NCBI GenBank assembly: GCA_001822075.1
Contig: MHPK01000004.1
Span: forward strand, 7,979-71,978
Source: Candidatus Staskawiczbacteria bacterium RIFOXYB1_FULL_38_37
GTDB taxonomy: Bacteria; Patescibacteriota; Minisyncoccia; Minisyncoccales; Staskawiczbacteraceae
Reading direction: 5' to 3'
DNA: 64,000 nt
A program made the position numbers and the translations under genes. The notes beneath the pieces are model-generated. The model searched no databases and was not told the origin of the DNA. It worked only from the letters and a program-made list of their open reading frames with translations. Shown in pieces: positions 2,330 through 52,994 of the stretch. Within the stretch, counting starts at the first letter, position 1, and each line of letters begins with the position of its first letter.

Positions 2330-2875
2330 TTAAAAGGACTCTAAGTTGCCAGAATTTATGTCCGAAAGAAAACAGACAAGGTAAAATGCGCCGCCAGAAA
2401 CAAAGAGCAATGTTGCAATTCCCGGATTCGGCAAAAGCCATACGCAAAACACGGAAGCTGAAGCTGTTATGCCAGAATATGGCAAGCGCAAAATTCCATT
2501 CCAGCTCAATTTTCCCGCGCAAGGATAGCGCGTATTTGGCTTATGCTCTTTGGCAAGACCAATCATAGCAAAGTCTGCCATAAAAAATATTGATAAAACA
2601 CAAAAAACCGACCAGTGCCGAAGTTCAAAACGATAAACAGCAACGTGCAGGAAAGCCGCCCATATCAAAGAAACTCCGACTGGGTCTCCCCATGAAAAAG
2701 TCCAAAAATCCTTCATGTAGAGGAATTTTTGATTTGTGTTCGGGATAATGGAATTCTGTTCCGGCAGGGTTTTATCAAAAAACTCTGCCAAAAACATAAG
2801 CATTATCCAAAATAAATTTCCAGCCACAGCAATAGTATAAAACGTCCAGGAAAATTTCATTTTATGCCCTTTCAA
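2330..2875 (-). CDS. Hypothetical polytopic membrane protein
   Basis: 181-aa ORF with several hydrophobic helices and no recognisable motif. Overlapping ORFs in other frames are shorter and low-complexity. Confidence 0.45.
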   Translation of the reverse strand: MKGHKMKFSWTFYTIAVAGNLFWIMLMFLAEFFDKTLPEQNSIIPNTNQKFLYMKDFWTFSWGDPVGVSLIWAAFLHVAVYRFELRHWSVFCVLSIFFMADFAMIGLAKEHKPNTRYPCAGKLSWNGILRLPYSGITASASVFCVWLLPNPGIATLLFVSGGAFYLVCFLSDINSGNLESF

Positions 2876-3018
2876 AAAATGTTGTCAAAGAGCTTCAAAA
2901 TATAAATTACAATATCACAATAAAAATATAGCGTCAACATTTACCCATCGCTAACTTTTGATTATAATAAAGTATTCGCATTTTCGCGTTATTAGCATAA
3001 AATTTGTAGATTTGTATT

Positions 3019-5103
3019 ATGCCGTACGAACCAAAAAAAGTTGAAAATAAAATTTATCAGTTCTGGGAAGAGTCTGGCTTTTTTAATCCCGATAAACTGC
3101 CCGCCCGTCATAAAAAGCCATACACTATTGTTATTCCCCCGCCGAATGTTACGGGCGAACTTCATATCGGACACGCTCTAAACGCAACAATACAGGATAT
3201 TTTGATAAGGCAGAAAAGAATGCAGGGGTTTAAAACTTTATGGCTGCCGGGAACAGACCATGCTGGAATTGCAACCCAAAATGTTGTTGAAAAAAAATTG
3301 AGGAAAGAGGGAAAAACAAGGTTTGACTTGGGCCGTGAAAAATTTATTGAAGAAGTATGGAAATGGAAAGAAGAATACGGAAATAAAATTTTAAACCAAT
3401 TTAAAAAACTTGGCTCTTCGTGTGACTGGTCAAGAACAAGGTTTACAATGGACCAGGGGTATTCTGACGCAATCAAAGAAGCTTTTTTGCATTATCATAA
3501 AAAAGGCTGGATTTATAAAGGAAAAAGAATTGTTAACTGGTGCAAAAGGTGCGCCACATCGCTTTCTGATTTAGAGCTTGAATATAAAGAAGAAAAAGGA
3601 AATTTGTGGTTTATAAAATACCCTGTTAAAGACCCGCCCGCCGGCGAGGCAGGAGGCGGATTTATCACGGTGGCAACAACAAGGCCAGAAACAATGCTGG
3701 GCGACACAGCTGTTGCTGTAAACCCAAAAGATAAAAGATATAAAAATTTAATTGGCAAAACAGCTGTCCTGCCTTTGGTAAACAGGGAAATTCCAATAAT
3801 ATCTGACATTTTAATTGATTCTAAATTCGGCACAGGGGCTGTAAAAGTAACGCCAGCCCACGACATAACCGACCAAGCAATCGGAGAAAAGCATAAATTA
3901 GAGGCAATACAAGTTATTGATGAAAAAGGAAGAATAATAAACAGTCCTGAAAAACCTGCCCGCAGCGGCTTCGCCACAGGCGATGCAGGCGGGTATAACG
4001 GATTGAAAATAGACGAAGCGAGAGAAAAAATTATTGAATATTTAAAATGCCAAAATCTTTTAGAAAAAACAGAAAATTACACCCGCCAAGTGCCAAAATG
4101 CTACAGGTGTTCAACAACAGTAGAGCTTATTCCCTCTATGCAATGGTTTTTAAAAATGTCAGAGCTGGCAAAATTAGCTGAAAAGCCTGTAAAAGCTGGA
4201 AAAATAAAATTTCACCCTAAAAATTTTGAAAAGCCATATTTTGATTGGCTAAAAAACATAAAAGATTGGTGCATTTCAAGGCAAATTTGGTGGGGCCATA
4301 AAATTCCAATAGAAGGAGAAACCGATGTTTTAGACACATGGTTTTCTGCGGCCTTGTGGCCTTTTGCAACTTTGGGCTGGCCCGAAAAAACAAAAGATTT
4401 AAAAAATTATTATCCCACTGCTGTTTTGAGCACAGCCAGAGATATTATAAATTTATGGGTTGCCAGAATGATTTTTTCCGGAATGGAATTTATGAAAGAA
4501 ATCCCCTTCAGCCATGTTTATGTGCACGCCACCGTTTTAACCCGCGACGGCCAAAGAATGTCAAAAAGCTTAGGGACAGGAATTGACCCTGTAAAATTAA
4601 TTGAGGAGTTCGGAGCTGACGCTGTAAGATTTGGGATTGCCTTCCAAATTATGGGAAACCAGGACATAAAATTTGTCACAGACAATATTTTAATGGGCAA
4701 AAAATTCTGCAATAAAATATGGAATGCTTCAAAATTTGTTGAATTAAAAAACGGAAAAGAAAAATATGACGGTAAAAAGCCTTATGCTAAAAATAAAGCT
4801 GATAAAGCAATTTTAAAATCATTGGAAAAAACAGAAAAATCAGTTAGCAAGTGCTTGGAAAATTTTGAATTCGGAAAATCAGCCCATATTTTGTATGATT
4901 TTTTCTGGCATGATTTTTGCGACAAATACATAGAAGAATCAAAAAAACAGGAATCTGAAAACACAAACAAAATTTTAATGTACGTTTTGTTGGGCTCTAT
5001 AAAGCTTTTGCACCCGTTTATGCCCTTTATAACAGAAAAAATTTACCAGCAATTGCCCCTGAAAAATAAAAAAGAGTGTATAATGATAGAAGAATGGCTT
5101 TAA
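3019..5103 (+). CDS. valS: Valine--tRNA ligase (short form lacking C-terminal coiled coil)
   Basis: PPPNVTGELHIGHALN (HIGH), KMSKSLGTG (KMSKS), VATTRPETMLGDTAVAVNPKDKRY. Confidence 0.9.
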   Translation: MPYEPKKVENKIYQFWEESGFFNPDKLPARHKKPYTIVIPPPNVTGELHIGHALNATIQDILIRQKRMQGFKTLWLPGTDHAGIATQNVVEKKLRKEGKTRFDLGREKFIEEVWKWKEEYGNKILNQFKKLGSSCDWSRTRFTMDQGYSDAIKEAFLHYHKKGWIYKGKRIVNWCKRCATSLSDLELEYKEEKGNLWFIKYPVKDPPAGEAGGGFITVATTRPETMLGDTAVAVNPKDKRYKNLIGKTAVLPLVNREIPIISDILIDSKFGTGAVKVTPAHDITDQAIGEKHKLEAIQVIDEKGRIINSPEKPARSGFATGDAGGYNGLKIDEAREKIIEYLKCQNLLEKTENYTRQVPKCYRCSTTVELIPSMQWFLKMSELAKLAEKPVKAGKIKFHPKNFEKPYFDWLKNIKDWCISRQIWWGHKIPIEGETDVLDTWFSAALWPFATLGWPEKTKDLKNYYPTAVLSTARDIINLWVARMIFSGMEFMKEIPFSHVYVHATVLTRDGQRMSKSLGTGIDPVKLIEEFGADAVRFGIAFQIMGNQDIKFVTDNILMGKKFCNKIWNASKFVELKNGKEKYDGKKPYAKNKADKAILKSLEKTEKSVSKCLENFEFGKSAHILYDFFWHDFCDKYIEESKKQESENTNKILMYVLLGSIKLLHPFMPFITEKIYQQLPLKNKKECIMIEEWL

Positions 5104-17187: not shown

Positions 17188-17216
17188 ATTATATCATATA
17201 CAAAAAACCTTGTCAA
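17188..17216 (-). promoter_or_regulatory. Consensus sigma70-type promoter for the 16436..17137 ORF
   Basis: On the minus strand: TTGACA - 17 nt - TATAAT (perfect hexamers). Confidence 0.7.
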
Positions 17217-21817: not shown

Positions 21818-22492
21818 ATGGCAAGATTTAAAGATAAAGAAAAAGCTTTAGCTCTTAGAAAACAAGAAATGAGCTACAGCCAAATTAAAAATATTTTAGG
21901 AGTAAGCAAAAGCACACTAAGCGGGTGGCTTAAAGATTATCCTTTATCCAAAGAGAGAATAGATGCTCTGCGAGGTAAAAATGAAAAACGGATCGAAAGA
22001 TATCGTGAGACGAGAAGACGAACAAAAGAAAAAAGATTAAATGAATTTTATCTTGAAGAAAAAGGCAAAGTTTTTCCTTTAACAAATAGAGATTTTTTTA
22101 TTGCCGGACTCTTTTTATATTGGGGGGAAGGAGCAAAAACATTATCTAAAGAAGTTTCTGTATCCAACACAGACCCGTCAATGATTAATTTTTTTATAGA
22201 TTGGGCTATTAAATATCTAAAAGTCTCCAAAGAAAAATTATGCATTACATTACATTTATATAATGATATGGACATTGATAAGGAAATAGAATTTTGGTCT
22301 AAAAAAATAGACATACCAAAAAATCAATTTAGCAAACCATATATAAAGCAGACTTCTTTAAAATCAATAAATTACAAAAGAGGATTCGGACATGGAACAT
22401 GCAATGCAAGAATAAATAATGCGCGTCTTTCCGAGAAAGTTTTGATGGCAATAAAATCAATATCAGATAAATATTCAAATGCGGGCCTGTAG
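21818..22492 (+). CDS. HTH + single-motif LAGLIDADG-like endonuclease (putative)
   Basis: N-terminal HTH SYSQIKNILGVSKSTLSGWL, then FFIAGLFLYWGEGAK. The stop codon lies 10 nt inside tRNA-Ile. Confidence 0.5.
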   Translation: MARFKDKEKALALRKQEMSYSQIKNILGVSKSTLSGWLKDYPLSKERIDALRGKNEKRIERYRETRRRTKEKRLNEFYLEEKGKVFPLTNRDFFIAGLFLYWGEGAKTLSKEVSVSNTDPSMINFFIDWAIKYLKVSKEKLCITLHLYNDMDIDKEIEFWSKKIDIPKNQFSKPYIKQTSLKSINYKRGFGHGTCNARINNARLSEKVLMAIKSISDKYSNAGL

Positions 22493-22554
22493 CTCAGTGG
22501 TAGAGCACCGCCCTTATAAGACGGCCGTCGCAGGTTCGATCCCTGCCAGGCCCA
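22483..22554 (+). tRNA. tRNA-Ile (anticodon UAU)
   Basis: Acceptor GGGCCTG/CAGGCCC, anticodon loop CTTATAA (one C-A mismatch in the stem), T-arm GCAGGTTCGATCCCTGC. Confidence 0.75.
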
Positions 22555-22573
22555 CCCACATTGAAATTAATTC

Positions 22574-22646
22574 GGGCGGTTAGCTCAGTTGGTAGAGCAT
22601 TTACTTGACGTGTAAAGGGTCATAGGTTCGAGTCCTATACCGCCCA
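22574..22646 (+). tRNA. tRNA-Val (anticodon GAC)
   Basis: Acceptor GGGCGGT/ACCGCCC, anticodon stem TTTAC/GTAAA with loop TTGACGT. Confidence 0.85.
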
Positions 22647-22647
22647 C

Positions 22648-22701
22648 ATGGATATAAAAATAATCTACGAAGATAATGATGTTTTGGTTGCTTTTAATTG
22701 A
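22648..22701 (+). pseudogene. Duplicated 5' fragment of the rluD-like gene (17 codons then stop)
   Basis: 22648..22690 matches 23191..23233 at 40 of 43 positions. It translates MDIKIIYEDNDVLVAFN*, against MNVKIIYEDNDVLVVDKP in the full gene. Confidence 0.8.
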
Positions 22702-22747
22702 GGAATATGATATTCTTAAATCGTGATAAAACATAAAAACAAAAAAT

Positions 22748-22981
22748 ATGTTTAATGAATTTATTGAAAAAAAATTAAAATCGGCGCGATATAAAATTCT
22801 CAAAGACGGGAGTTATTTTGGCAAAATTCCAGAGGTGCAGGGAGTATGGGCCAACGCTAAAAACTTGGAAGATTGTCGGCAAGAATTGAGAGAAGTTTTA
22901 GAAGACTGGTTTCTTCTAAAACTTCAAGCGAGAGAAAAAATACCTGATTTCGAAATTAGAATTGGATGCCGTCATGCTTAA
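22748..22981 (+). CDS. hicB: HicB-like antitoxin (UPF0150 type)
   Basis: YKILKDGSYFGKIPEVQGVWANAKNLEDCRQELREVLEDW pattern. Overlaps the next ORF by ATGCTTAA. Confidence 0.65.
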   Translation: MFNEFIEKKLKSARYKILKDGSYFGKIPEVQGVWANAKNLEDCRQELREVLEDWFLLKLQAREKIPDFEIRIGCRHA

Positions 22982-23186
22982 AAATATTTCTTGGCGAAAA
23001 TTCATTCAGAAATTTAAACGGCTCGGATTTGATGGCCCCTATTCAGGCGGCCGTCATTTGTTTATGATTAAAAAAGAATTAAAAGTTCATATTCCCAATC
23101 CTCATCGTAGCGACATTTCAAAACACCTTGTTTCAGAAATTTTAAAACAAGCAGGCATTTCAATTAGCGATTGGGAAAACGCTTGA
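22974..23186 (+). CDS. hicA: HicA-like mRNA interferase toxin
   Basis: FKRLGFDGPYSGGRHLFM...HIPNPHRSDISKHLVSEILKQAGI. The in-frame ATG at 22974 was chosen over 22962. Confidence 0.65.
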   Translation: MLKNISWRKFIQKFKRLGFDGPYSGGRHLFMIKKELKVHIPNPHRSDISKHLVSEILKQAGISISDWENA

Positions 23187-23190
23187 TTAA

Positions 23191-23937
23191 ATGAATGTAA
23201 AAATAATCTACGAAGACAATGATGTTTTGGTTGTTGATAAACCTGCTGGAATTGTTGTTTTTCCAGAAGGAGATATAAGTGGAGAAAAAACCTTAATTGA
23301 TTATCTGGTAGAAAAAAATCCTGAGTTAAAATTAGCCGGTGAAACACCAAGATACGGAATTGCGCATAGATTAGACAAAGACACTTCCGGAATTTTGTTA
23401 GTGGCAAAAAACAGCGAGGCCTTGATTTTTTTTCAAAAACAGTTTTCCGCCGTCGCTAAAGCTTTGGCGGACAAGAAAAATAGCCAAACACTTGAAAAAA
23501 GCATAGAAAAAAGGTATATTGCATTAGTTGAGGGCGATATAAAAGAAGATAATAGGACAATCCACACTCTAATTGGACGCTCGCCAAAAGACCCAAGAAA
23601 ACAAAAAGCATATTCTTTAAACGAAGCAAAAACCGGCAGAAGAGAAGCAGTCTCAGAATATAAAGTTTTACAGCGCTTTAAAGACTATACTCTGCTTGAG
23701 GTTCAAATAAAAACAGGAAGGCGACACCAGATAAGGTGCCATTTATCTTATTTGCATCACCCGATTGCAGGCGACAAACTATATGGATTTAAAAACTCAA
23801 AAACTCCTGAAGGCCTGACAAGGCAATTTCTGCACGCATCATACCTAAAAATCCAATTACCCAATGGAAAAACCGAAGAATTTAAATCGGATTTGCCAGA
23901 GGGATTACAAGTAATACTTAAAAACCTAAAAACATAA
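23191..23937 (+). CDS. rluD: RluA/RluD-family pseudouridine synthase
   Basis: HRLDKDTSGILLVAKN and TGRRHQIRCHL motifs. Confidence 0.85.
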   Translation: MNVKIIYEDNDVLVVDKPAGIVVFPEGDISGEKTLIDYLVEKNPELKLAGETPRYGIAHRLDKDTSGILLVAKNSEALIFFQKQFSAVAKALADKKNSQTLEKSIEKRYIALVEGDIKEDNRTIHTLIGRSPKDPRKQKAYSLNEAKTGRREAVSEYKVLQRFKDYTLLEVQIKTGRRHQIRCHLSYLHHPIAGDKLYGFKNSKTPEGLTRQFLHASYLKIQLPNGKTEEFKSDLPEGLQVILKNLKT

Positions 23938-23940
23938 AAT

Positions 23941-24423
23941 ATGGCAAAATTATTAGAACAATTCAATAAATCGCAGTTGAAAAAATTGCCCGAAATAACT
24001 ACGGGTGATATTATTAAAGTGCACCAAAAAGTAAAAGAAGGGGGTAAAGACTTGCCTGCCGGCAGGCAAGGAAAAATACAAATCTTTGAAGGTTTGGTTA
24101 TTGCCAAAAAACACGGCAAGGGAATTTCAGCTACAATTACTGTAAGAAAAATTGCAGGCGGGGTGGGCGTTGAAAGGATTTTTCCCATACATTCACCCTT
24201 AATAGATAAAATAGAAGTTTTAAGGCACGGAAAAACAAGAAGGGCAAAGCTTTATTATTTAAGAACAGCCAAGGGTAAAAAATCAAAATTAAAAAATAAG
24301 GAATTTGCAGAGGTTATAGCCGACGAACCAGAAGAATCACCAGCAGAAGAACCCGCCGAAAATTCTGAAGATAATCAGGCGGGCGAGATGCCAGCAGAGA
24401 CAGAACAGGAAAAAACAGAATAG
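23941..24423 (+). CDS. rplS: 50S ribosomal protein L19 with acidic C-terminal tail and an in-frame palindrome insertion
   Basis: [13 protein letters not shown]...[26 protein letters not shown]...[10 protein letters not shown]. Confidence 0.9.
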
Positions 24424-24440
24424 CCACAAGAGTAAAATTT

Positions 24441-24523
24441 GCCCTCGTGATGGAACTTGGTATACATGTACGCTTGAGGTGCGTATGCCGCAAGGCTTGT
24501 GGGTTCGAATCCCACCGAGGGCA
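24441..24523 (+). tRNA. tRNA-Leu (anticodon GAG)
   Basis: Acceptor GCCCTCG/CGAGGGC, anticodon stem TACGC/GCGTA with loop TTGAGGT, long variable arm. Confidence 0.85.
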
Positions 24524-24545
24524 CACTGGGCTCGCCCAGTTTTAC

Positions 24546-24620
24546 GGACGGCTAGCTCAATGGCAGAGCGTCTCGTTTACACCGAGAAGGTTATAGGTTC
24601 GAGTCCTATGCCGTCCACCA
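24546..24620 (+). tRNA. tRNA-Val (anticodon UAC), CCA encoded
   Basis: Acceptor GGACGGC/GCCGTCC, anticodon stem TCTCG/CGAGA with loop TTTACAC. Confidence 0.85.
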
Positions 24621-24695
24621 GCCGGGATAGCTCAGTGGTAGAGCACTTCTCTGAAAAAGAAGGGGTCGAGAGTCCGATTCTCTCTCCCGGCACCA
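24621..24695 (+). tRNA. tRNA-Phe (anticodon GAA), CCA encoded
   Basis: Acceptor GCCGGGA/TCCCGGC, anticodon stem CTTCT/AGAAG with loop CTGAAAA. Confidence 0.85.
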
Positions 24696-24753
24696 AAAAT
24701 ATTTTGGTTTCTGCAGCTAAAGCGGGCTTGCCCGCCGAAGCTCGCAAGCGTAG

Positions 24754-24827
24754 GCGGGTGTAGCACAGTGGTAGTGCATCTGGTTGCCAATCAGAGTACG
24801 TGGGTCCGATTCCCATCACCCGCTCCA
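24754..24827 (+). tRNA. tRNA-Gly (anticodon GCC), CCA encoded
   Basis: Acceptor GCGGGTG/CACCCGC, anticodon loop TTGCCAA. Confidence 0.85.
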
Positions 24828-26245: not shown

Positions 26246-26328
26246 TGCCCAGGGCGGGAGTCGAACCCGCATGAGCTTTCGCTCAAAGGATTTTAAGTCC
26301 TTCGTGTATACCATTCCACCACCTGGGC
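26246..26328 (-). tRNA. tRNA-Leu (anticodon UAA)
   Basis: Reverse complement: acceptor GCCCAGG/CCTGGGC, anticodon stem AAGGA/TCCTT with loop CTTAAAA, long variable arm. Confidence 0.85.
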
Positions 26329-26346
26329 AAAAATTTATTAAATCTG

Positions 26347-26417
26347 AGGCCTAGGTGGGATTTGCACCCACGTTGGCGCTTTTGCAGAGCGCTCCCTAGC
26401 TTCTTGGGTACTAGGCC
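26347..26417 (-). tRNA. tRNA-Cys (anticodon GCA)
   Basis: Reverse complement: acceptor GGCCTAG/CTAGGCC, anticodon stem GCGCT/AGCGC with loop CTGCAAA. Confidence 0.85.
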
Positions 26418-27241: not shown

Positions 27242-27589
27242 TCAATCTTTATTTTCATTCTTGGCTTTGTACAAAAGCTCCTCAATTTTTCCTGCCCTGC
27301 TTAAAACTTTATCTTTTACAAACTTAATTCTTGGAACTGGCCTCATTCTCATGGTTTTATTAACTTTTTGCTGGATATCAAAAATGTTTTTATCAAGCAT
27401 TTTTATCATCTCGTCTGCTTTGTCATCAGGAAACACAGAAATAAAAACCTTTGCCTCAATTAAATTTGCTGTTGTGTCCACGTAAGTTAAAGTAACCAAA
27501 ACATCAGGAGAATAGGCAAAATCCCTAAAAATAATTTTACTTATCTCTTTTTCTAACAGCGAATTAACTTTTTCAATCCTATTTGACAT
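27242..27589 (-). CDS. rbfA: Ribosome-binding factor A
   Basis: RIEKVNSLLEKEISKII and PVPRIKFVKD pattern. Located downstream of infB. Confidence 0.8.
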   Translation of the reverse strand: MSNRIEKVNSLLEKEISKIIFRDFAYSPDVLVTLTYVDTTANLIEAKVFISVFPDDKADEMIKMLDKNIFDIQQKVNKTMRMRPVPRIKFVKDKVLSRAGKIEELLYKAKNENKD

Positions 27590-27660
27590 TATATTATTTA
27601 TTTGATATTATATTTGTATTCAGCTTTTTGTCAATTTGACCTACTTTCAGGAGAACAAAC

Positions 27661-35198: not shown

Positions 35199-35270
35199 GG
35201 GGATCGACGGGAATTGCACCCGCGACGACTCTGCCACAGAGAGTTGTGTTGCTGCTACACCACGATCCCC
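35199..35270 (-). tRNA. tRNA-His (anticodon GUG) with encoded G-1
   Basis: Reverse complement: G-1 + GGGATCG/CGATCCC + C73, anticodon stem ACTCT/AGAGT with loop CTGTGGC. Confidence 0.8.
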
Positions 35271-35304
35271 ATATTATTGCTTGCACTGAACGCAGTGAAG
35301 TGTG

Positions 35305-35376
35305 TGCCCTCGAGAGGAATCGAACCTCTATTCTAGGTTTAGAAAACCTATGTTCTATCCATTGAACTACGGGGGC
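35305..35376 (-). tRNA. tRNA-Arg (anticodon UCU)
   Basis: Reverse complement: acceptor GCCCCCG/CGAGGGC, anticodon stem TAGGT/ACCTA with loop TTTCTAA. Confidence 0.85.
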
Positions 35377-35410
35377 TTCTTACATAAAATATTATCATAC
35401 TTTTTTCTCT

Positions 35411-35439
35411 TTGACAATATGAATTTTTTGCATTAGAAT
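35411..35439 (+). promoter_or_regulatory. Promoter of the tRNA-Pro/tRNA-Gly pair
   Basis: TTGACA - 17 nt - TAGAAT, ending 10 nt before tRNA-Pro. Confidence 0.65.
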
Positions 35440-35448
35440 ATATCATAT

Positions 35449-35519
35449 CGGGGTGTCGTATAGTGGTAGTATAAACGCTTTGGGAGCGTTTGGTCTGAGT
35501 TCGATTCTCAGCACCCCGA
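35449..35519 (+). tRNA. tRNA-Pro (anticodon UGG)
   Basis: Acceptor CGGGGTG/CACCCCG, anticodon stem AACGC/GCGTT with loop TTTGGGA. Confidence 0.85.
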
Positions 35520-35531
35520 CCAAAAACTAAT

Positions 35532-35605
35532 GCGGGCATGGTGTAGCAGCAGCACGAAACCCTTCCAAGGTTTGAGCACGGGTGCAAATCCCGTTGCCCG
35601 CTCCA
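35532..35605 (+). tRNA. tRNA-Gly (anticodon UCC), CCA encoded
   Basis: Acceptor GCGGGCA/TGCCCGC, anticodon stem AAACC/GGTTT with loop CTTCCAA. Confidence 0.85.
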
Positions 35606-45791: not shown

Positions 45792-45889
45792 TTCAAAAAA
45801 ATATGCCCGCGGTCAGACGGACATTGCTTTCTATCGTTTAATTATTATATTAGTTTACCAAAACAAAAACCCCTTGTCAACCTCACACC

Positions 45890-46788: not shown

Positions 46789-47517
46789 ATGACAGACAAC
46801 TTGCAAGAAGCTAAAAACCTGATAAGCAATTCAAAAAACATTTACATTGTCTCGCAGGAAGAGCCAGAGGCTTTTGCCTGTTCTTTGGCTCTTTTTTATA
46901 CTTTAAAAGAATTAAGCAAAAATGTAAACTTAATTATAGGCGAACTGCCTGAAAACCTCAAATTTTTAGCCCCGTCTTTAGACTTTGTTTCTTACCCTAA
47001 AAATTTTGTAATTTCAATACCAAACAGAATTGCAGACATTTCCCAAATTTATTACGAAAAGAATGATAACGATTTAAAAATACATCTGACTTTAGACAAG
47101 GGAATAATAAAAAAAGACGATGCATCTTTTTATTTTTCAGAGCCAAAACCGGATTTAATTATAACCTTGGGCGTAAAAGACTACAAAACTCAGCTGAAAG
47201 ACAAAATGGATTCTTTTGGGTTTTTGCTCGATTCTCCTATACTAAACATTGACAGCGGCGAGACAGATAATAAAAATTTTGGTAAAATTAACTTATTAAG
47301 CAGCCAGCCTATTGCAAAAACAACAACAGACCTCATTAAAAGCATTTCTGACAATCCTATAAAAAAGGAGGCTGTTGAATGCCTTTTAACAGGGCTTGTA
47401 ATTTGCACTGAAAATTTTAAAAACTCCAAAGTGACTGCAGATATTTTTGAACTGGCCGGCAGCTTGATGAAGCAAGGGGCCTCTTTTAAAAAAATCATAG
47501 AAAATATTTACAAATAA
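46789..47517 (+). CDS. NrnA/DHH-like fold protein, catalytic motifs not evident
   Basis: The layout resembles the DHH N-domain (IYIVSQEEPEAFACSLALFYTL), but the DHH residues are not seen. Confidence 0.35.
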   Translation: MTDNLQEAKNLISNSKNIYIVSQEEPEAFACSLALFYTLKELSKNVNLIIGELPENLKFLAPSLDFVSYPKNFVISIPNRIADISQIYYEKNDNDLKIHLTLDKGIIKKDDASFYFSEPKPDLIITLGVKDYKTQLKDKMDSFGFLLDSPILNIDSGETDNKNFGKINLLSSQPIAKTTTDLIKSISDNPIKKEAVECLLTGLVICTENFKNSKVTADIFELAGSLMKQGASFKKIIENIYK

Positions 47518-47616: not shown

Positions 47617-48966
47617 ATGCCTGAAATAAAAAAAATATTAGGGTCCGTAGCAATTTCAAAAAAAATAATTGATGAACTGAACTTAGAGGCAAAAAACATA
47701 GCAGGCTATAAAAAGAAGATTGACGAATACATGGGCCAGGATGTTACTTCATTTTTAGAAGTTATTTTGTTTGGCGCAATACTTCTGGATGCTTCTGACA
47801 TCCATATAGAGCCGCAGGAACAAAACGCAAGGCTGAGAATAAGATTAGACGGCATCTTACAGGATGTTGTTTTTTTTGACCATCAAACCCGCCATCATTT
47901 GCTTTCGCGTTTAAAGCTTTTGTCAAAATTAAAGTTAAATATCACAGACAAGCCCCAAGACGGCAGATTTTCAATAGAAAGCGGAGGCCAGCTGATAGAA
48001 ATAAGAACTTCCTCTTTGCCGGCAGAATACGGAGAATCAATTGTAATGAGAGTTTTAAACCCAAAAAATTTAATTGCTTTAGACGACCTAGGTTTGAGAA
48101 AAGACCTTTTAAAAACTTTTGAAAAAGAAATTAAAAAGCCAAATGGAATGATAATTGTAACAGGCCCCACGGGCTCTGGAAAAACAACCACTCTTTACGC
48201 ATTTTTAAAAAAAATACAAAACCCAGAAATTAAAATTATAACAATTGAAGACCCTATTGAATACCATTTAAAAGGGGTTTCCCAAACCCAAGTTTCTCCT
48301 GAAAAAGGATATACATTTGCTGAAGGATTAAAATCAATTGTAAGGCAGGACCCTGATGTGATACTGGTTGGCGAAATAAGAGACCTTGAGACAGCTAAAA
48401 TTGCCCTACAAGCAGCTTTAACGGGCCATCTAGTGCTTTCCACCTTGCACACAAATGATGCAGCAGGAACAATACCAAGGCTTGTAGATTTAGGAGCTAA
48501 TGCTTCTTCTGTGGCGCCCGCCTTGAAAATGGCAGTTGCCCAAAGGCTTGTAAGAAAAGTGTGTAAAAAATGCTCAACATTATCAAAGCCAACAGAAAAG
48601 GAATTGTCAGAAATTAAAAAAGGATTAAAAAGCCTGCCATCTGCAATAAAAATTCCCGATTTAGATAAAGCGCAAATTGCAAGAGTCAAAGAAGGAGGTT
48701 GCGAGGCCTGCAATTTTACAGGCTATAAGGGCAGGCAAGGGCTGTTTGAAGCATTTTTGGTAAACTCTAAAATGGAAAAATTTATTTTAACCAACCCGCC
48801 TGTTTCTTCTGTAAGAGAGCTTGCTGTAAAAAGCGGCATGGCAACAATGTACCAGTCAGGGTTAATAGATGTTGTAAACGGAATCACAACTTTAGATGAA
48901 GTTTTAAGAGTCGTCGAAGAAGACGAAGAACAGGCAAGCCCCGTCATTGCGAGCGAGTCAAAGTAA
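47617..48966 (+). CDS. GspE/PilB-family secretion/pilus ATPase
   Basis: Walker A GPTGSGKTTT, IITIEDPIEY, ILVGEIRD, C-terminal CxxC...CxxC cluster. Confidence 0.85.
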   Translation: MPEIKKILGSVAISKKIIDELNLEAKNIAGYKKKIDEYMGQDVTSFLEVILFGAILLDASDIHIEPQEQNARLRIRLDGILQDVVFFDHQTRHHLLSRLKLLSKLKLNITDKPQDGRFSIESGGQLIEIRTSSLPAEYGESIVMRVLNPKNLIALDDLGLRKDLLKTFEKEIKKPNGMIIVTGPTGSGKTTTLYAFLKKIQNPEIKIITIEDPIEYHLKGVSQTQVSPEKGYTFAEGLKSIVRQDPDVILVGEIRDLETAKIALQAALTGHLVLSTLHTNDAAGTIPRLVDLGANASSVAPALKMAVAQRLVRKVCKKCSTLSKPTEKELSEIKKGLKSLPSAIKIPDLDKAQIARVKEGGCEACNFTGYKGRQGLFEAFLVNSKMEKFILTNPPVSSVRELAVKSGMATMYQSGLIDVVNGITTLDEVLRVVEEDEEQASPVIASESK

Positions 48967-48981
48967 TCTTAATTTTTTGAA

Positions 48982-49509
48982 ATGGAAAAGCCGAAAGTAA
49001 AAATATACATTGACGGAGCAAATATGTTTTACACTCAAAAAAGATTGGGTTGGTTCATTGATTGGAAAAAAGTTAAAAATTATATTGAACAAGAAAAAAA
49101 TGTAATAGAGTGGCGATATTATGTGGGTGTTAAAGATAATGATGAGAAAATGCTAAAGTATTTAAAATATCTAAATTTGGTTGGTTTTAATACAATAACT
49201 AAACCCCTGAAAAAGATTAAAATTGGCGATAGTGAAATTATTCCCCAAAATTCAGAAAGAAGCTTTATTTATAAAGCGAACTTTGATGTAGAAATGACGA
49301 CGGATATTTTATTAGAAAAGTTTAAATTAGACGAAATTATTATATTTAGCGGGGATAGCGATTTTAGATATTTGGTTAAAAAATTAAAAGACGCCGGATT
49401 AAAGGTTGTCGTATTTTCTTCAAGAAAAACAATTTCTTGGGAATTAAAAATTGAGTGCGCAAAAGTTATTTATTTTGAAGGCGCAAAAGATAAAATAATG
49501 AGAGAATAA
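48982..49509 (+). CDS. NYN/LabA-like nuclease (native AT-rich copy)
   Basis: VKIYIDGANMFY and IIIFSGDSDFRYLVKKLKDAGLKVVVF. Confidence 0.75.
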   Translation: MEKPKVKIYIDGANMFYTQKRLGWFIDWKKVKNYIEQEKNVIEWRYYVGVKDNDEKMLKYLKYLNLVGFNTITKPLKKIKIGDSEIIPQNSERSFIYKANFDVEMTTDILLEKFKLDEIIIFSGDSDFRYLVKKLKDAGLKVVVFSSRKTISWELKIECAKVIYFEGAKDKIMRE

Positions 49510-49600
49510 AAAACCCACCCCAGCTTTCGCCGAGGTGGTTCTGTTAAACTAACTTTAGTATAGCAAGTTGAAACCAGATGTCAATAGATCGTAAAAAAAA

Positions 49601-49731
49601 GCGGCTCTAGAGTTGGAGGTAGCTTTATGTCTGGGACATAAACAAAGATTTGTCCGAGGAATATCCGAGCCGGAGCAAGGATACCCGAAGCTGGGACAAA
49701 CCCAAAAATTTACCTCCAACTCTAGAGCCGC
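49601..49731. other. 131-nt element closed by a perfect 21-bp inverted repeat (candidate structured RNA or MITE)
   Basis: gcggctctagagttggaggta (49601..49621) pairs with tacctccaactctagagccgc (49711..49731). Inner helices are tttatgtc/gacataaa, tttgtcc/ggacaaa and tatcc/ggata. An A8 run lies on the left, which is a U8 tail on the minus strand. Confidence 0.6.
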
Positions 49732-49805
49732 TTCGCCTATATTGCTCAATACGTATTTTAGATATATTTCATCAATATTTTTCAGTGTAGCATTTTTTAG
49801 TGTAT

Positions 49806-50813
49806 ATGTCAAGTATCCTAAATAAAAAACCGGAGAGGGAAGATGAGGTTTTAGATTCCGCTTTAAGGCCAAAAAAATGGTCAGATTATGTTGGGCAAGA
49901 CAAAATTAAAGAAAATATAAGAATTATTATAACAGCCGCAAAGCAAAGAAGCCAGAGCCCAGACCATTTATTATTTTATGGCAATTCTGGGTTAGGAAAA
50001 ACCACTTTAGCCTATCTCGTGGCCCAAGAAATGGGAAAAGAAATAAGAATCACGGCTGGCCCTGCAATTGAAAGGGCCGGAGATTTAGCGGCAATTTTAA
50101 CAAATTTGTCAGAGGGCGATGTCTTGTTTTTAGATGAAATACATAGAGTGGGCGCAACGGTTGAAGAATATCTTTATCCTGCAATGGAAGACTATAAACT
50201 GAATTTAATTTTGGGCAAAGGGCCTATGGCCCGCACAATGGAATTAAAACTTCCTAAATTTACCTTAATAGGAGCCACCACAAGGCCTGCTTTGCTGTCT
50301 TCTCCTTTGAGAAACCGCTTTGGCGCAATTTTCCAGCTCAATTTTTATACACCAGAGGATATGGAAAAAATAATTAAAAGGTCCTCGGACCTTTTGAAAA
50401 TAAAAATTGAGCCAGAAGCTTTAAAAATAATTTCAAACCGCTCTCGCTTCACCCCAAGAGTTGCCAACAGACTTTTAAAAAGAGTAAGAGATTTTGCCCA
50501 AGTGCAAGGCAACGGCCTTGTCACAAAAGAAATTGCAGAGCATGCATTAAATTTTTTGGAAGTAGACAAAATGGGTTTGGAGTCCGGAGACAGAAAAATT
50601 TTGCTTGCTTTAATTGAAAAATTCAATGGCGGGCCTGTGGGCCTGCAATCGCTGGCTGCAGCTTCCATGGAAGAAGAGGGCACTATTTTAGATATTTACG
50701 AGCCCTATTTAATGCAATGCGGGTTTATAGAGCGCACCCCCAAAGGCCGCATCGCCTCTCGCTTAGCCTACGAACACTTAGGTTTATTGCATATGCGAAA
50801 ACAACTGATATAA
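49806..50813 (+). CDS. ruvB: Holliday junction branch migration helicase RuvB
   Basis: LRPKKWSDYVGQDKIKENI, GNSGLGKTTLA, LFLDEIHR. Confidence 0.95.
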   Translation: MSSILNKKPEREDEVLDSALRPKKWSDYVGQDKIKENIRIIITAAKQRSQSPDHLLFYGNSGLGKTTLAYLVAQEMGKEIRITAGPAIERAGDLAAILTNLSEGDVLFLDEIHRVGATVEEYLYPAMEDYKLNLILGKGPMARTMELKLPKFTLIGATTRPALLSSPLRNRFGAIFQLNFYTPEDMEKIIKRSSDLLKIKIEPEALKIISNRSRFTPRVANRLLKRVRDFAQVQGNGLVTKEIAEHALNFLEVDKMGLESGDRKILLALIEKFNGGPVGLQSLAAASMEEEGTILDIYEPYLMQCGFIERTPKGRIASRLAYEHLGLLHMRKQLI

Positions 50814-51775
50814 TGAAAAAATATTTTATATTTTTATTTTGGCTTGCCTTTTTTCCAGCCCTTGCCTTTGCATCAGAAAAAGTAGACATTAACACGGCTT
50901 TGTTAGAGCAATTAGACCAGATAACAAACGTGGGGCCGATAACTGCGCAAAAAATAATTAATGCAAGGCCTTATTCTTCGCTTGATGACTTGCTAAAGGT
51001 TAATGGGATAGGACAAAAAACTTTAGACAAAATAAAAGAGCAAGGCATAGCTTGCGTTAATTGCGGAGCAAGCAACGAGGAGGCCCGACCTCCTGAGCCC
51101 GCCGCAGCAGCGGCGGGCGAAACTGCAGTTTCAAGTTCTGGGGAGGTCGGGCCTCCAATTAGCTATCCTGCGGGAGTTTTTATTAACGAGGTTTTGGCGA
51201 ATGCCGAAGGCCCGGACGAAGAAAACGAATTTATTGAGCTTTATAATTCAAATAATTTTGAAATTGATTTGTCTGGCTGGAAAATATCAGATTCTGCTGG
51301 CAGTATAACAAATTATATTTTTCCAAATGATAAAAAAATGGGGCCTTTTGGATTTTTGGCGCTTAAAAGGCCTGAAACAAAAATAACTTTAAATAATGAC
51401 CAAGACCAGTTAACTCTTTATTCTCCAGATAAAGCTGTAAAAGATACTATGTCTTACAATTCAGCTCCCAACGGCCAGTCTTATAATAAAACCGCCCCTG
51501 GTTGGCAATGGAGCTTAAACTTAACTCCAGGATCTGCCAATTCAATAGCCCGCCAGGCCCTGAGCGAAAGCGAAGGGTTGCTAAAAGACAAAAAAAATGA
51601 TAATAATATCATAGAAGACAGCTTAGCAGGCTTAGGCTATCCTTTAAACCAAGAAGGCATAAAAACGCAAAATCCTTGGTTTTTATTTTTTATGGCTTTA
51701 GCTATAACAATATTCTCTGCGGTTGTCGTATTATTTATTAAACTAAAATTTAAAAAGAACCATGTCAGGACATAG
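50813..51775 (+). CDS. Secreted ComEA-like HhH DNA-binding protein fused to a lamin-tail domain, C-terminal TM
   Basis: Signal peptide MKKYFIFLFWLAFFPALAFA. HhH VDINTA...LDQITNVGPITAQKII...VNGIGQKTLDKI. LTD VFINEVLANAEGPDEENEFIELYN. Start set at the ATG overlapping the ruvB stop (TAATG). Confidence 0.7.
   Translation: MKKYFIFLFWLAFFPALAFASEKVDINTALLEQLDQITNVGPITAQKIINARPYSSLDDLLKVNGIGQKTLDKIKEQGIACVNCGASNEEARPPEPAAAAAGETAVSSSGEVGPPISYPAGVFINEVLANAEGPDEENEFIELYNSNNFEIDLSGWKISDSAGSITNYIFPNDKKMGPFGFLALKRPETKITLNNDQDQLTLYSPDKAVKDTMSYNSAPNGQSYNKTAPGWQWSLNLTPGSANSIARQALSESEGLLKDKKNDNNIIEDSLAGLGYPLNQEGIKTQNPWFLFFMALAITIFSAVVVLFIKLKFKKNHVRT
51079..51156 (+). repeat. 78-nt nested GC-rich palindrome inside the ComEA-like gene
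   Basis: ggaggcccgacctcc...ggaggtcgggcctcc outer arms (15 nt), inner gcccgccgc-agca-gcggcgggc, then gaaactgcagtttc. Confidence 0.8.
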
Positions 51776-52487
51776 TCATGCAAAAACAATCATGGCCACA
51801 AAAATGGCTAATGATGCAAAAAAGGGCAAAATATATTCCAAATACGGCAGATTGATTGCAATAGCTGTTAAAGACGGCGGGGGCTCCGGCGACCCTGTAA
51901 AAAATGCCAAGCTCAAAGCTGTTATAGAACAAGCCAAAAGCATGAATATGCCGAAAGAAAATATTGAAAGAGCGATTAAAAGAGGCACTGGGGAATTGGC
52001 TGGAGAAAATTTAGAAGGAGTGTCTTATGAGGGTTTTGGCCCAGGCGGAATTGCCTTGATAATTGAAGGCATCACCGACAACACTAATAGAACTCTTACT
52101 GACGTAAAAGTTATTTTAAACCAAAACGGAGGCAAAATGGCAGGCGAGGGGGCTGTAAAATGGATGTTTGACAGAAAAGGAGATATAGCTATTGCCACAG
52201 AAGGAAAATTAAAAGAGGAGTTAGAGCTTCTTGCAATAGAGCTGGGGGCTGAAGATGTAAGGTGGCGCAATAATTTTTTGGATATTTATACAAAGCCTGA
52301 AGATTTAGAAAAAGTTAAAAAATCTCTTGAAGAAAAACAGATTAAAATAGAATCTGCTTCTTTGGACTGGGTTGCAAAAGAAGAAGTTGAAATTTCAGAA
52401 AAAGAAAAAGAGCAAGCTGAAAAACTTTTTGAAGCATTAGACGAAAACGACGCCATAAATAATATATACTCTAATATAAAAGCATAA
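51762..52487 (+). CDS. YebC/PmpR-family transcriptional regulator
   Basis: MSGHSHAKTIMATKMANDAKKGKIYSKYGRLIAIAVKDGGG...ENIERAIKRG. Confidence 0.9.
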   Translation: MSGHSHAKTIMATKMANDAKKGKIYSKYGRLIAIAVKDGGGSGDPVKNAKLKAVIEQAKSMNMPKENIERAIKRGTGELAGENLEGVSYEGFGPGGIALIIEGITDNTNRTLTDVKVILNQNGGKMAGEGAVKWMFDRKGDIAIATEGKLKEELELLAIELGAEDVRWRNNFLDIYTKPEDLEKVKKSLEEKQIKIESASLDWVAKEEVEISEKEKEQAEKLFEALDENDAINNIYSNIKA

Positions 52488-52502: not shown

Positions 52503-52994
52503 ATGATAATTTTGGGAGTAGACCCAGGGTCTGTGCTGGCAGGATATGCCGTACTCAAAAAAGACAAAAATAAAAAATTAGAGGTTTTGGATTTTGGTTG
52601 CATAAATGTGGAAAAAAGCCTTTCAACTGGAGACAGGCTAAAAAACGTTCACAAAGAAATAACTAAAATCATAGAAAAATACAGGCCAGATGCAATGTCT
52701 GTTGAAAATTTGTTCTTTTTTAAAAACTTAAAAACAGTAATGCCCGTAAGCCAGACAAAAGGAGTTATTTTGCTGGCTGGAGCCCAAAAAAATATTCCTG
52801 TTTTTGAATTTACCCCTCTTCAGATGAAAATGGCAATTGCAGGATATGGGAGGGCTGAAAAAAAACAAATTAAGGAAATGATAAAAAAAATCCTTGATTT
52901 AAAAGGTTTTGACCTTAAAAAAAACCATAGAAAAAAAGACGACGCTTTTGATGCCTTGGGTATGGCAATCTGCGCTGCAATAAAAGCATATTAA
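52503..52994 (+). CDS. ruvC: Crossover junction endodeoxyribonuclease RuvC
   Basis: IILGVDPGSVLAGYAVL, MSVENLFFFKN, DDAFDALGMAICA. Confidence 0.9.
   Translation: MIILGVDPGSVLAGYAVLKKDKNKKLEVLDFGCINVEKSLSTGDRLKNVHKEITKIIEKYRPDAMSVENLFFFKNLKTVMPVSQTKGVILLAGAQKNIPVFEFTPLQMKMAIAGYGRAEKKQIKEMIKKILDLKGFDLKKNHRKKDDAFDALGMAICAAIKAY

Follow-up and report, generated by a model that had tools for sequence, protein, structure and literature searches.

We identified a putative small-RNA gene upstream of ruvB in Candidatus Staskawiczbacteria, an uncultivated lineage of the Parcubacteria/CPR. The analysed DNA (the window) is a stretch of 64 kb, which identical proteins assign to this lineage (one matching assembly is GCA_003518025.1). 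The element at 49593-49733 very probably encodes the structured core of a small RNA whose gene, on the minus strand, is independent and has a promoter and a terminator of its own, and the RNA product would act in trans. With no match in Rfam 15 or in the literature searched, the element is a new family of small structured RNA; the kind to which it belongs, the independently transcribed structured bacterial small RNA, is already known. The RNA is present in every Staskawiczbacteria-type relative sampled, as a single copy in fixed synteny.

CPR bacteria have tiny genomes and are uncultivated, and our literature searches found no non-coding RNA described from them. The strong covariation, the consensus-grade promoter and the presence in all relatives sampled make this a likely major RNA of the organism, of relevance to both RNA biology and CPR biology.

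The element folds into a three-way junction

An earlier reading, made from the sequence alone, had described a perfect 21-bp inverted repeat closing the element. Both arms are present: gcggctctagagttggaggta occupies 49601-49621 and its complement 49711-49731. Once the AA/TT on either side is counted, the closing helix comprises 23 bp (49599-49621 with 49711-49733), and an inverted-repeat search reported the closing repeat with 31-nt arms at 90% identity. When up to three mismatches were allowed, the two arms were the sole matches to the 21-mer in the 64-kb window, with 0 expected from 100 shuffles.

Two hairpins lie inside the closing repeat. The first, tttatgtc-tgg-gacataaa (49624-49642), has 8 bp and a 3-nt loop, while the second (49646-49703) is longer and interrupted and contains a tttgtcc/ggacaaa helix enclosing a tatcc/ggata helix with the loop gagccggagcaa. 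The sequence-only reading had pointed out all of these helices, and we recovered them in the sequence and in the predicted fold. It was also right about the A8 run that abuts the left arm (49593-49600) and about the GC content, which is 0.47 in the element versus 0.35 in the surrounding 2 kb. Together, the closing helix and the two inner hairpins form a three-way junction, and the RNA core measures 131-137 nt among relatives.

The minus strand folds with an energy of -77.2 kcal/mol (z = -10.3), and 0 of 200 shuffles folded as well. The plus strand reaches -67.5 kcal/mol (z = -7.95), again with no shuffle equally stable, which leaves the minus strand ~10 kcal/mol better.

As noted before, only short ORFs run across the element. 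These frames are mechanical, and one of them, of 105 aa, matched no Pfam family. The region is taken as non-coding because homologues are separated by 1-nt and 2-nt indels within the element; these frame-breaking indels and the missing Pfam match ruled out a protein-coding reading.

Compensatory changes maintain all four helices

We built a covariance model, R1, and aligned 85 distinct sequences to it, giving 50 pairs and 4249 cells. Standard pairing was found in 98.7% of the cells. Covarying secondary structure, a general mark of small-RNA genes, is evident: compensatory double changes occur at 29 of the 50 pairs, in all four helices and in 275 cells, and 0 of 500 shuffles reached any of the five measures used. 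Sliding the pair partners by 1-3 columns lowered the pairing to 31-50%. This alignment is fitted to R1, and an independent MAFFT alignment shows the same picture. Moreover, RNAalifold returned the three-way junction from 22 sequences with 13 doubly compensated pairs, a covariation value reached by 0 of 500 shuffles.

Conservation is spread over the whole molecule, with a mean column identity of 89% in the 22-sequence alignment, and the flanks are unalignable. The segments UCCUC and CUUGCU...GGCUCG do not vary in the 22 sequences and hardly vary across 81.

The 5' arm of the closing helix (49711..49733, minus strand) reads AAGCGGCUCUAGAGUUGGAGGUA in the RNA. Fourteen of the 22 modelled pairs of this helix are doubly compensated, and 98.9% of its cells pair across the 85 sequences. 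The joiner J1 (AAUUUUU, 49704..49710), which leads from the closing helix to helix A, is unpaired in both the MFE fold and the consensus; among relatives it is 7-11 nt long, A/U-rich throughout and followed by an invariant UUGG.

Helix A, the long arm (49646..49703), emerges from the MFE fold, the consensus and the covariation. Its lower part has 10 bp, the first of which is an invariant G·U pair, and 7 of these 10 pairs are doubly changed. An asymmetric and conserved internal loop (CAGCUUC versus UC) follows, in which AG(C/U)UUCGG on the 5' strand faces UCCUC on the 3' strand, with the GG and the first UCC paired. The upper part consists of 8 bp, a 2x2 loop (UU/UC) and a 2-bp GC helix, and five of these ten upper pairs, the apical GC helix included, are doubly changed. 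The cap is a C(UCCG)G tetraloop (49671-49674), for which relatives have only UCCG, UUCG, UUUG, UCUG, UUAG or UCAG, plus a single CUCG (locus L086). The apical region as a whole, CUUGCU-CCGG-CUCG, is near-invariant.

The short arm, hairpin B (49624..49642), is UUUAUGUC-CCA-GACAUAAA, with 8 bp and a CCA loop. Its core UGUCCCAGACA is nearly invariant, three of its eight pairs are compensated, and locus L160 has UAUC/GAUA. The 3' arm of the closing helix, UACCUCCAACUCUAGAGCCGCUU (49599..49621), is defined by the inverted repeat, the fold and the covariation. It runs into a U8 tract (49593..49600), which shares the last two pairs of the closing helix and presumably forms an intrinsic terminator with it.

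Four independent signs point to the minus strand

The strand was assessed by counting wobble pairs in 81 sequences. On the minus strand we found 128 G·U cells, or 47 if the invariant pair is left out, and only 15 A·C cells. A G·U pair of a plus-strand RNA would appear here as A·C, and the count of 128 versus 15 thus favours the minus strand. At one pair, 62 sequences have A-U and 23 have G·U. In the first 22 sequences, the count without the invariant pair was ambiguous (19 versus 9), and it became clear once 81 were used. Additionally, R1 scores the element at 164 bits on the minus strand versus 50 bits on the plus strand.

Read on the minus strand, the apical loop (UCCG, UUCG, UUUG or UCUG, closed by C-G) is of the UNCG type, whereas the plus strand has CGGA. 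The U-run that follows the closing helix has a median of 7 U in the first 8 nt on the minus strand versus 4 on the plus strand among 22 relatives; on the plus-strand side the helix is followed by at least UU. Wobble asymmetry, apical loop, U-run and the promoter described below are four independent signs in the sequence, all pointing to the minus strand. G·U pairs are rare overall (~1.6 per sequence over 50 pairs), and this rarity, together with an almost perfect DNA palindrome, leaves room for some constraint on both strands.

A consensus-grade promoter precedes the RNA in all loci with enough flank

A consensus scan placed a promoter on the minus strand at 49784..49812, kept in all 78 relatives with enough flank. 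It comprises a -35 element, TTGACA (49812-49807), a 17-nt spacer ending in TGC (49792-49790), which gives an extended -10, and the -10 element TACACT (49789-49784). All of the 78 related loci have the form TTGACA-17 nt-TGnTAnnnT ahead of the RNA: the spacer is always 17 nt, TTGACA is always perfect, and the -10 is TATAAT in 40 of the 78. Only four strict promoters of this form exist in the 64-kb window. The -35 overlaps the ATG of ruvB on the plus strand (49806-49808), an arrangement (ATGTCAA read backwards) that recurs in 74 of the 78 loci. The non-coding stretch is therefore framed by its own promoter and terminator, as is general for small-RNA genes.

From the promoter geometry, transcription would start at ~49777, 7 nt past the -10, which predicts a 5' leader at 49736..49777. 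The leader lacks sequence conservation except for its first motif, ATATTGA, which may be initially transcribed sequence; read on the other strand as TCAATAT, it may be a weak -35 of a leaderless ruvB mRNA. Inspection of the plus strand by eye gave only weak candidates for a separate ruvB promoter, compatible with a leaderless mRNA. Among relatives, between 10 and 112 nt (mode 23-24) lie between the -10 and the start of pairing, so the structured core is probably the mature RNA, and the variable leader may be trimmed.

Two loci, L007 and L008, depart from the usual arrangement. A GIY-YIG gene has been inserted past a 7-codon remnant of the ruvB start, and the promoter stayed with the RNA; moreover, a 256-nt palindromic, MITE-like insertion separates the promoter from the RNA. 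In these loci, the RNA must be cut out of a long precursor, unless the gene is impaired.

The element is single-copy at a fixed position

In the window, a protein without a Pfam family (46789-47517), a PilB-like ATPase of the Pfam family T2SSE (47617-48966) and an NYN-domain protein (48982-49509) are encoded on the plus strand before the element, and ruvB (49806-50813), a HHH_3/lamin-tail protein (50813-51775), YebC (51762-52487) and RuvC (52503-52994) follow on the same strand. The element, with its RNA on the minus strand, lies between the NYN gene and ruvB. About 3 kb from the element, the GC skew reaches a minimum and gene orientation switches. A terminator hairpin of its own (49515-49538) follows the NYN gene, and the element beside it is unchanged. 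Relatives with a RuvB 74-94% identical to that of the query carry the same element at the same place and lack the NYN gene; where relatives have no insertions, the T2SSE gene ends with its stop codon directly at the U-tract side of the element.

The model R1 gave a single match in the 64-kb window. A pattern scan with one genome per species found the element in 18 Staskawiczbacteria-type genomes, with one copy each. Five matches in GC-rich genomes (Akkermansia, PVC, Pseudomonadota) were rejected as coding sequence without the repeat, and the three of these tested with the model (L016, L023 and L028) had no match to it. Among metagenome contigs, 68 of the 80 loci listed hold exactly one copy, and the other 12 were discarded as chance pattern matches that the model did not match. 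A second RuvB search, started from the most divergent member, added four further relatives. All four keep the RNA, indicating that the limit of the family has not been reached. In total, 89 loci carry a single copy each, the metagenome share being drawn from the listed matches. On one side the neighbour is ruvB in 82 of 82 loci, and on the other side it is the T2SSE gene in 85 of 87. The viral contigs searched contained no copy, and a phage origin of the element was dropped for that reason.

The RNA matches no catalogued family

The sequence-only reading had found no resemblance to SRP, 6S, tmRNA or RNase P and had recommended a covariance-model scan. That scan has now been run, and its result agrees. 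With the 4227 families of Rfam 15, nothing passed the gathering threshold on the window element or on 11 diverse relatives, and at E<=10 the element region gave chance matches to long hairpins only. On the whole window, Rfam 15 found 15 tRNAs elsewhere and nothing at the element, and ARAGORN recognised no tRNA or tmRNA in 49300-50000. The 6S models RF00013 and RF01685 were likewise without a match, at E<=10 in the window region and at gathering in the 11 diverse loci. None of the SRP models of Rfam matched the element, and the GGAA...AGCA motif is absent from the sequence. Literature searches for small RNAs or 6S in CPR, Patescibacteria or Parcubacteria returned nothing relevant.

Further classes were considered and rejected. 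Retron msr-msd and Y RNAs found no footing, as the neighbours are only T2SSE, NYN, RuvB, HHH/LTD, YebC and RuvC, with no reverse transcriptase or Ro60/Rsr gene among them, and no Rfam model matched. A TIGR-Tas guide RNA was set aside too, with no box C/D motif visible and no tas gene among the neighbours; tigRNAs are arrays of box C/D units beside tas genes and have been treated for Staskawiczbacteria in a preprint (bioRxiv 10.64898/2026.09.09.750476).

A model for the RNA and its alternatives

Taken together, we propose the following model. The consensus-grade, sigma-70-type promoter (49812..49784) would start transcription at ~49777, and a short, non-conserved leader would precede the structured core. 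The RNA would then fold into the almost perfect closing helix of 22-24 bp, the long arm with its UNCG-type tetraloop and the 8-bp CCA hairpin, and transcription would stop at the closing helix and the U8 tract (49593-49600). The closing helix may also end the convergent transcript of the PilB-like ATPase (T2SSE), which arrives from the opposite direction. Because the T2SSE stop codon abuts the element in most relatives and the plus side of the helix carries at least UU, we consider that the helix is probably a bidirectional terminator for the RNA and the T2SSE transcript. Polymerase on the strong minus-strand promoter would cover the ruvB start, and expression of the RNA may thus hinder transcription of ruvB.

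The RNA product would work in trans, bound by a protein. This role is deduced from the pattern of conservation: the constraint spans the whole length rather than a short seed, which is typical of the RNAs of ribonucleoproteins and not of seed-type sRNAs, and a trans-acting, protein-binding RNA is the most likely role on these grounds. The promoter and terminator motifs further suggest that the RNA is made and abundant. The sequence-only reading had put a compact multi-helix ncRNA on the minus strand first of its two options, and single-copy synteny, covariation, G·U asymmetry, the promoter in 78 of 78 loci and the U-tract now all speak for it. Pushed further, the model would make this RNA the missing global regulator of a CPR lineage, either as a ~135-nt miniature 6S-type RNA that would sequester RNA polymerase with a perfect closing duplex or as the RNA subunit of a new ribonucleoprotein universal to Staskawiczbacteria, although we regard this extension as rather improbable.

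The leading specific version of the model is the 6S-like one, in which the RNA would mimic an open promoter and occupy the housekeeping RNA polymerase holoenzyme. We regard it as rather unlikely and do not file the RNA as 6S. Under this version, release would depend on the synthesis of a short product RNA, for which the A/U-rich 5' joiner and the closing helix's 5' arm would serve as template, and such products would begin with about AAAUAAAUACC. 6S RNA is a rod of ~200 nt in which a central bubble lies between a closing stem and an apical stem, and its imperfect arms are interrupted by bulges that are thought to give a DNA-like shape (PMC8876501). In 6S-1 of B. subtilis, the bubble has an open 5' strand, and its 3' strand already carries a small hairpin (PMC8876501). 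The parts of the present RNA come in the same order as in Bacillus subtilis 6S-1: the closing stem is followed by an open 5' strand, the apical stem and a hairpin on the 3' strand. A truncated 6S-1, reduced to the bubble and two short arms, still works and cycles in vitro (PMC8876501), and homology searches have in the past missed divergent 6S RNAs, 6S-Flavo among them (PMC2864571).

The very strong promoter and the occurrence as a single-copy RNA in all lineage members sampled also fit a 6S-type RNA. In addition, once the 3' arm is displaced, its UCCAA could pair anew with the invariant UUGGA located distally in the 5' joiner, a pairing that would resemble the 'central bubble collapse helix'; however, it comprises 5 nt, shows no covariation and could be due to chance. 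Against the 6S-like version, RF00013 and RF01685 stay unmatched even at E<=10, the RNA has 131-137 nt versus ~200, its closing helix forms 22-24 bp of continuous A-form duplex without the bulges of 6S, and the open 5' strand has only 7-11 nt. The probability that lies outside the 6S-like version falls mainly to some other protein partner.

A regulatory sRNA that pairs with mRNAs through the C-rich unpaired UCCUC loop and the CCCA of hairpin B is unlikely. Such an RNA would be expected to have its own promoter, its own terminator and invariant unpaired segments, all of which are seen here. Moreover, sRNAs of Hfq-poor Gram-positive bacteria are known to target ribosome-binding sites through C-rich loops. 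However, a match to the Shine-Dalgarno sequence, even of just 4 nt, precedes only 2 of the 51 genes in the window, which is below the random background, and the obvious class of targets is therefore missing and pairing with ribosome-binding sites unlikely. Furthermore, conservation that extends over the whole molecule, helices included, is unusual for seed-type sRNAs, and no target was found, the 5-nt seeds being too short for a meaningful search.

It is also quite improbable that the element is a device in cis, that is, a bidirectional terminator or insulator between the T2SSE unit and ruvB, possibly with antisense transcription from the promoter occluding the ruvB start, for which the RNA product itself would be unimportant. 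The T2SSE stop codon that adjoins the U-tract end in relatives without insertions, the UU or longer U-run that follows the helix on the plus strand too, and the -35 seated on the ruvB ATG with no convincing separate ruvB promoter in sight would all suit such a device. However, neither a terminator nor an insulator needs 87 nt of interior sequence that forms a three-way junction, keeps its loops near-invariant and compensates changes in its inner helices. For the same reason a simple intrinsic terminator was rejected, although the U-tract is there: its interior would be a conserved and covarying junction of 87 nt. Furthermore, the G·U asymmetry indicates selection on the fold of the minus-strand product, and in the window the NYN gene is equipped with its own terminator hairpin (49515-49538) while the element is still unchanged.

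We consider it very improbable that selection acts on the DNA itself, as a cruciform palindrome, a protein-binding site near ruvB or a single-stranded DNA structure. The palindrome is nearly perfect, G·U pairs are few, and the element adjoins genes for Holliday-junction processing, with the GC-skew minimum and the orientation switch ~3 kb away. However, a duplex site would not give a strand-asymmetric wobble of 128 versus 15, a UNCG-type loop on one strand only would be unexpected, and the promoter and the U-tract are precisely placed to frame a transcription unit.

Finally, two readings can be dismissed as having next to no probability: a riboswitch-like leader of ruvB on the plus strand, which the position upstream of ruvB in all loci would allow but which has wobble, tetraloop, promoter and U-tract all on the opposite strand and is parted from ruvB in L007 by the insertion and the GIY-YIG gene, and the MITE with 21-bp terminal inverted repeats that the sequence-only reading had kept as its other option, which has the repeats but is single-copy in the window and in each genome scanned and whose arms change in a compensatory and not an independent manner. 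The count of copies had been named beforehand as the means of telling a MITE from an ncRNA, and it gave one copy in the window and one per relative locus, with covariation. There are no extra or dispersed copies (in the window, 18 species-level genomes and 89 loci), no variable insertion sites or positional polymorphism (ruvB 82/82, T2SSE 85/87) and no target-site duplication, the flanks being A8 and TTCGCC.

The small-RNA model lends itself to direct testing, as the RNA is ~135 nt long and its promoter should work in E. coli. Should the RNA prove to be an analogue of 6S, it would show to what size a promoter mimic can shrink; otherwise it would mark a new ribonucleoprotein. Additionally, the covariance model R1 could be used to annotate the family in metagenomes.

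Comparison with known systems

Like a MITE, the element is short, non-coding and bounded by perfect 21-bp inverted repeats; it differs in being single-copy and syntenic, in lacking a target duplication and in having arms that co-vary. The 256-nt palindromic insertion of L007/L008 provides the contrast, as a real MITE-like neighbour. With bidirectional intrinsic terminators the element shares a G+C-rich helix that is flanked by an A-run and a U-run and lies between convergent units. However, what would be the loop is a conserved three-way junction of 87 nt, the helix has 22-24 bp, and there is a dedicated promoter.

The small bacterial SRP RNA (4.5S), an abundant hairpin RNA of the housekeeping type, resembles the present RNA in its paired ends and in the internal loops of its long arm. 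The present RNA differs in its loop, which is UNCG-type and not GNRA, in lacking the GGAA/AGCA motifs of helix 8 and in having an extra hairpin, to which it owes its three-way junction.

6S RNA (B. subtilis 6S-1, RF00013; 6S-Flavo, RF01685) is likewise encoded by a single-copy gene under a strong promoter of the housekeeping type, and its apical stem, which bears internal loops and ends in a loop, has a counterpart in the present RNA. In contrast, the present RNA is shorter, its closing helix is free of bulges, its open strand is short, and the 6S models do not match it.

Lineage-restricted orphan RNAs, such as the motifs of Weinberg et al. 2010 (PMC2864571), form the remaining comparison. The present RNA shares no sequence or model similarity with any Rfam 15 family, and it comes from the CPR, where literature searches found no small RNAs described. 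It is like those motifs in being intergenic, in having its own promoter and terminator, in its covariation and in its restriction to one lineage.

Insertions at the RNA and in ruvB

In three relatives that carry the predicted structured small RNA, the same 256-nt palindromic element lies beside it (2375-2630 in locus L007, 1859-2114 in L008 and 531-786 in L133). The element is inserted at the exact 5' edge of the RNA, with the promoter on one side and the closing helix, in which the two RNA ends pair, on the other. It ends in imperfect terminal inverted repeats of 24 nt, has a fold energy of -107.7 kcal/mol and is flanked on both sides by a duplicated GCTCT(A)GAGCCGC. It looks like a true MITE, whose target would be the palindromic stem end of the RNA.

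L007 also carries a small GIY-YIG gene (2758-2997) within an insertion at 2708-3020, directly past ruvB codons 1-7. A 13-nt inverted repeat borders this cassette (AGTCTTCACCCAT ... ATGGGTGAAGACT). The L007 ruvB has gained a new start, and the remnant of its old ATG is still together with the promoter of the RNA.

An NYN-domain gene next to the RNA

On the other side of the RNA, an NYN-domain gene (48982-49509) separates it from the PilB-like ATPase gene and is confined to the window's own lineage; relatives lack this gene, and their ATPase stop codon adjoins the U-tract of the RNA. The NYN-domain gene has its own hairpin (49515-49538; minus-strand tail GUUUUUUAUU), which looks like a better terminator in the minus-strand direction. 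Moreover, a near-consensus promoter-like site, TTGACA-16-TATACT with TG, lies on the minus strand at 49584..49557; together with the hairpin, it would yield a transcript of only ~40 nt.

Genomic setting

Besides the promoter of the RNA, strict TTGACA-17-TGnTAnnnT sites occur in the window only at 17188-17216, at 45852-45880 and as a back-to-back pair at 27583-27634. Rfam detected no RNA families other than tRNA in the 64 kb, and three clusters (22483-24824, 26246-26417 and 35199-35602) hold 12 of the window's 15 tRNAs. The cumulative GC skew is lowest at ~44-46 kb, and gene orientation changes at ~46.8 kb, where the minus-strand genes for TsaE, UPF0102, NusA and H+-PPase give way to the plus-strand ATPase-ruvB block. 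Both features would fit a replication origin in this region, ~3 kb from the RNA.

Shine-Dalgarno sequences and the closing helix

Shine-Dalgarno sequences are nearly absent from the genes of the window: with ORF starts crudely called, only 2 of 51 long ORFs had so much as a 4-mer at most 20 nt from their start, versus ~9% of random positions. The window's ruvB lacks a Shine-Dalgarno sequence; its mRNA may be leaderless, or ruvB may be reached by read-through from upstream.

The RNA contains two copies of UUGGA, one in the 5' arm of the closing helix and one where the 5' joiner ends, and therefore a partner switch by the 3' arm is possible. In this organism, whose genes lack Shine-Dalgarno sequences, the closing helix (49599-49733) pairs a perfect Shine-Dalgarno-like GGAGGU in its 5' arm with ACCUCC in its 3' arm, the latter resembling the 16S 3' end.
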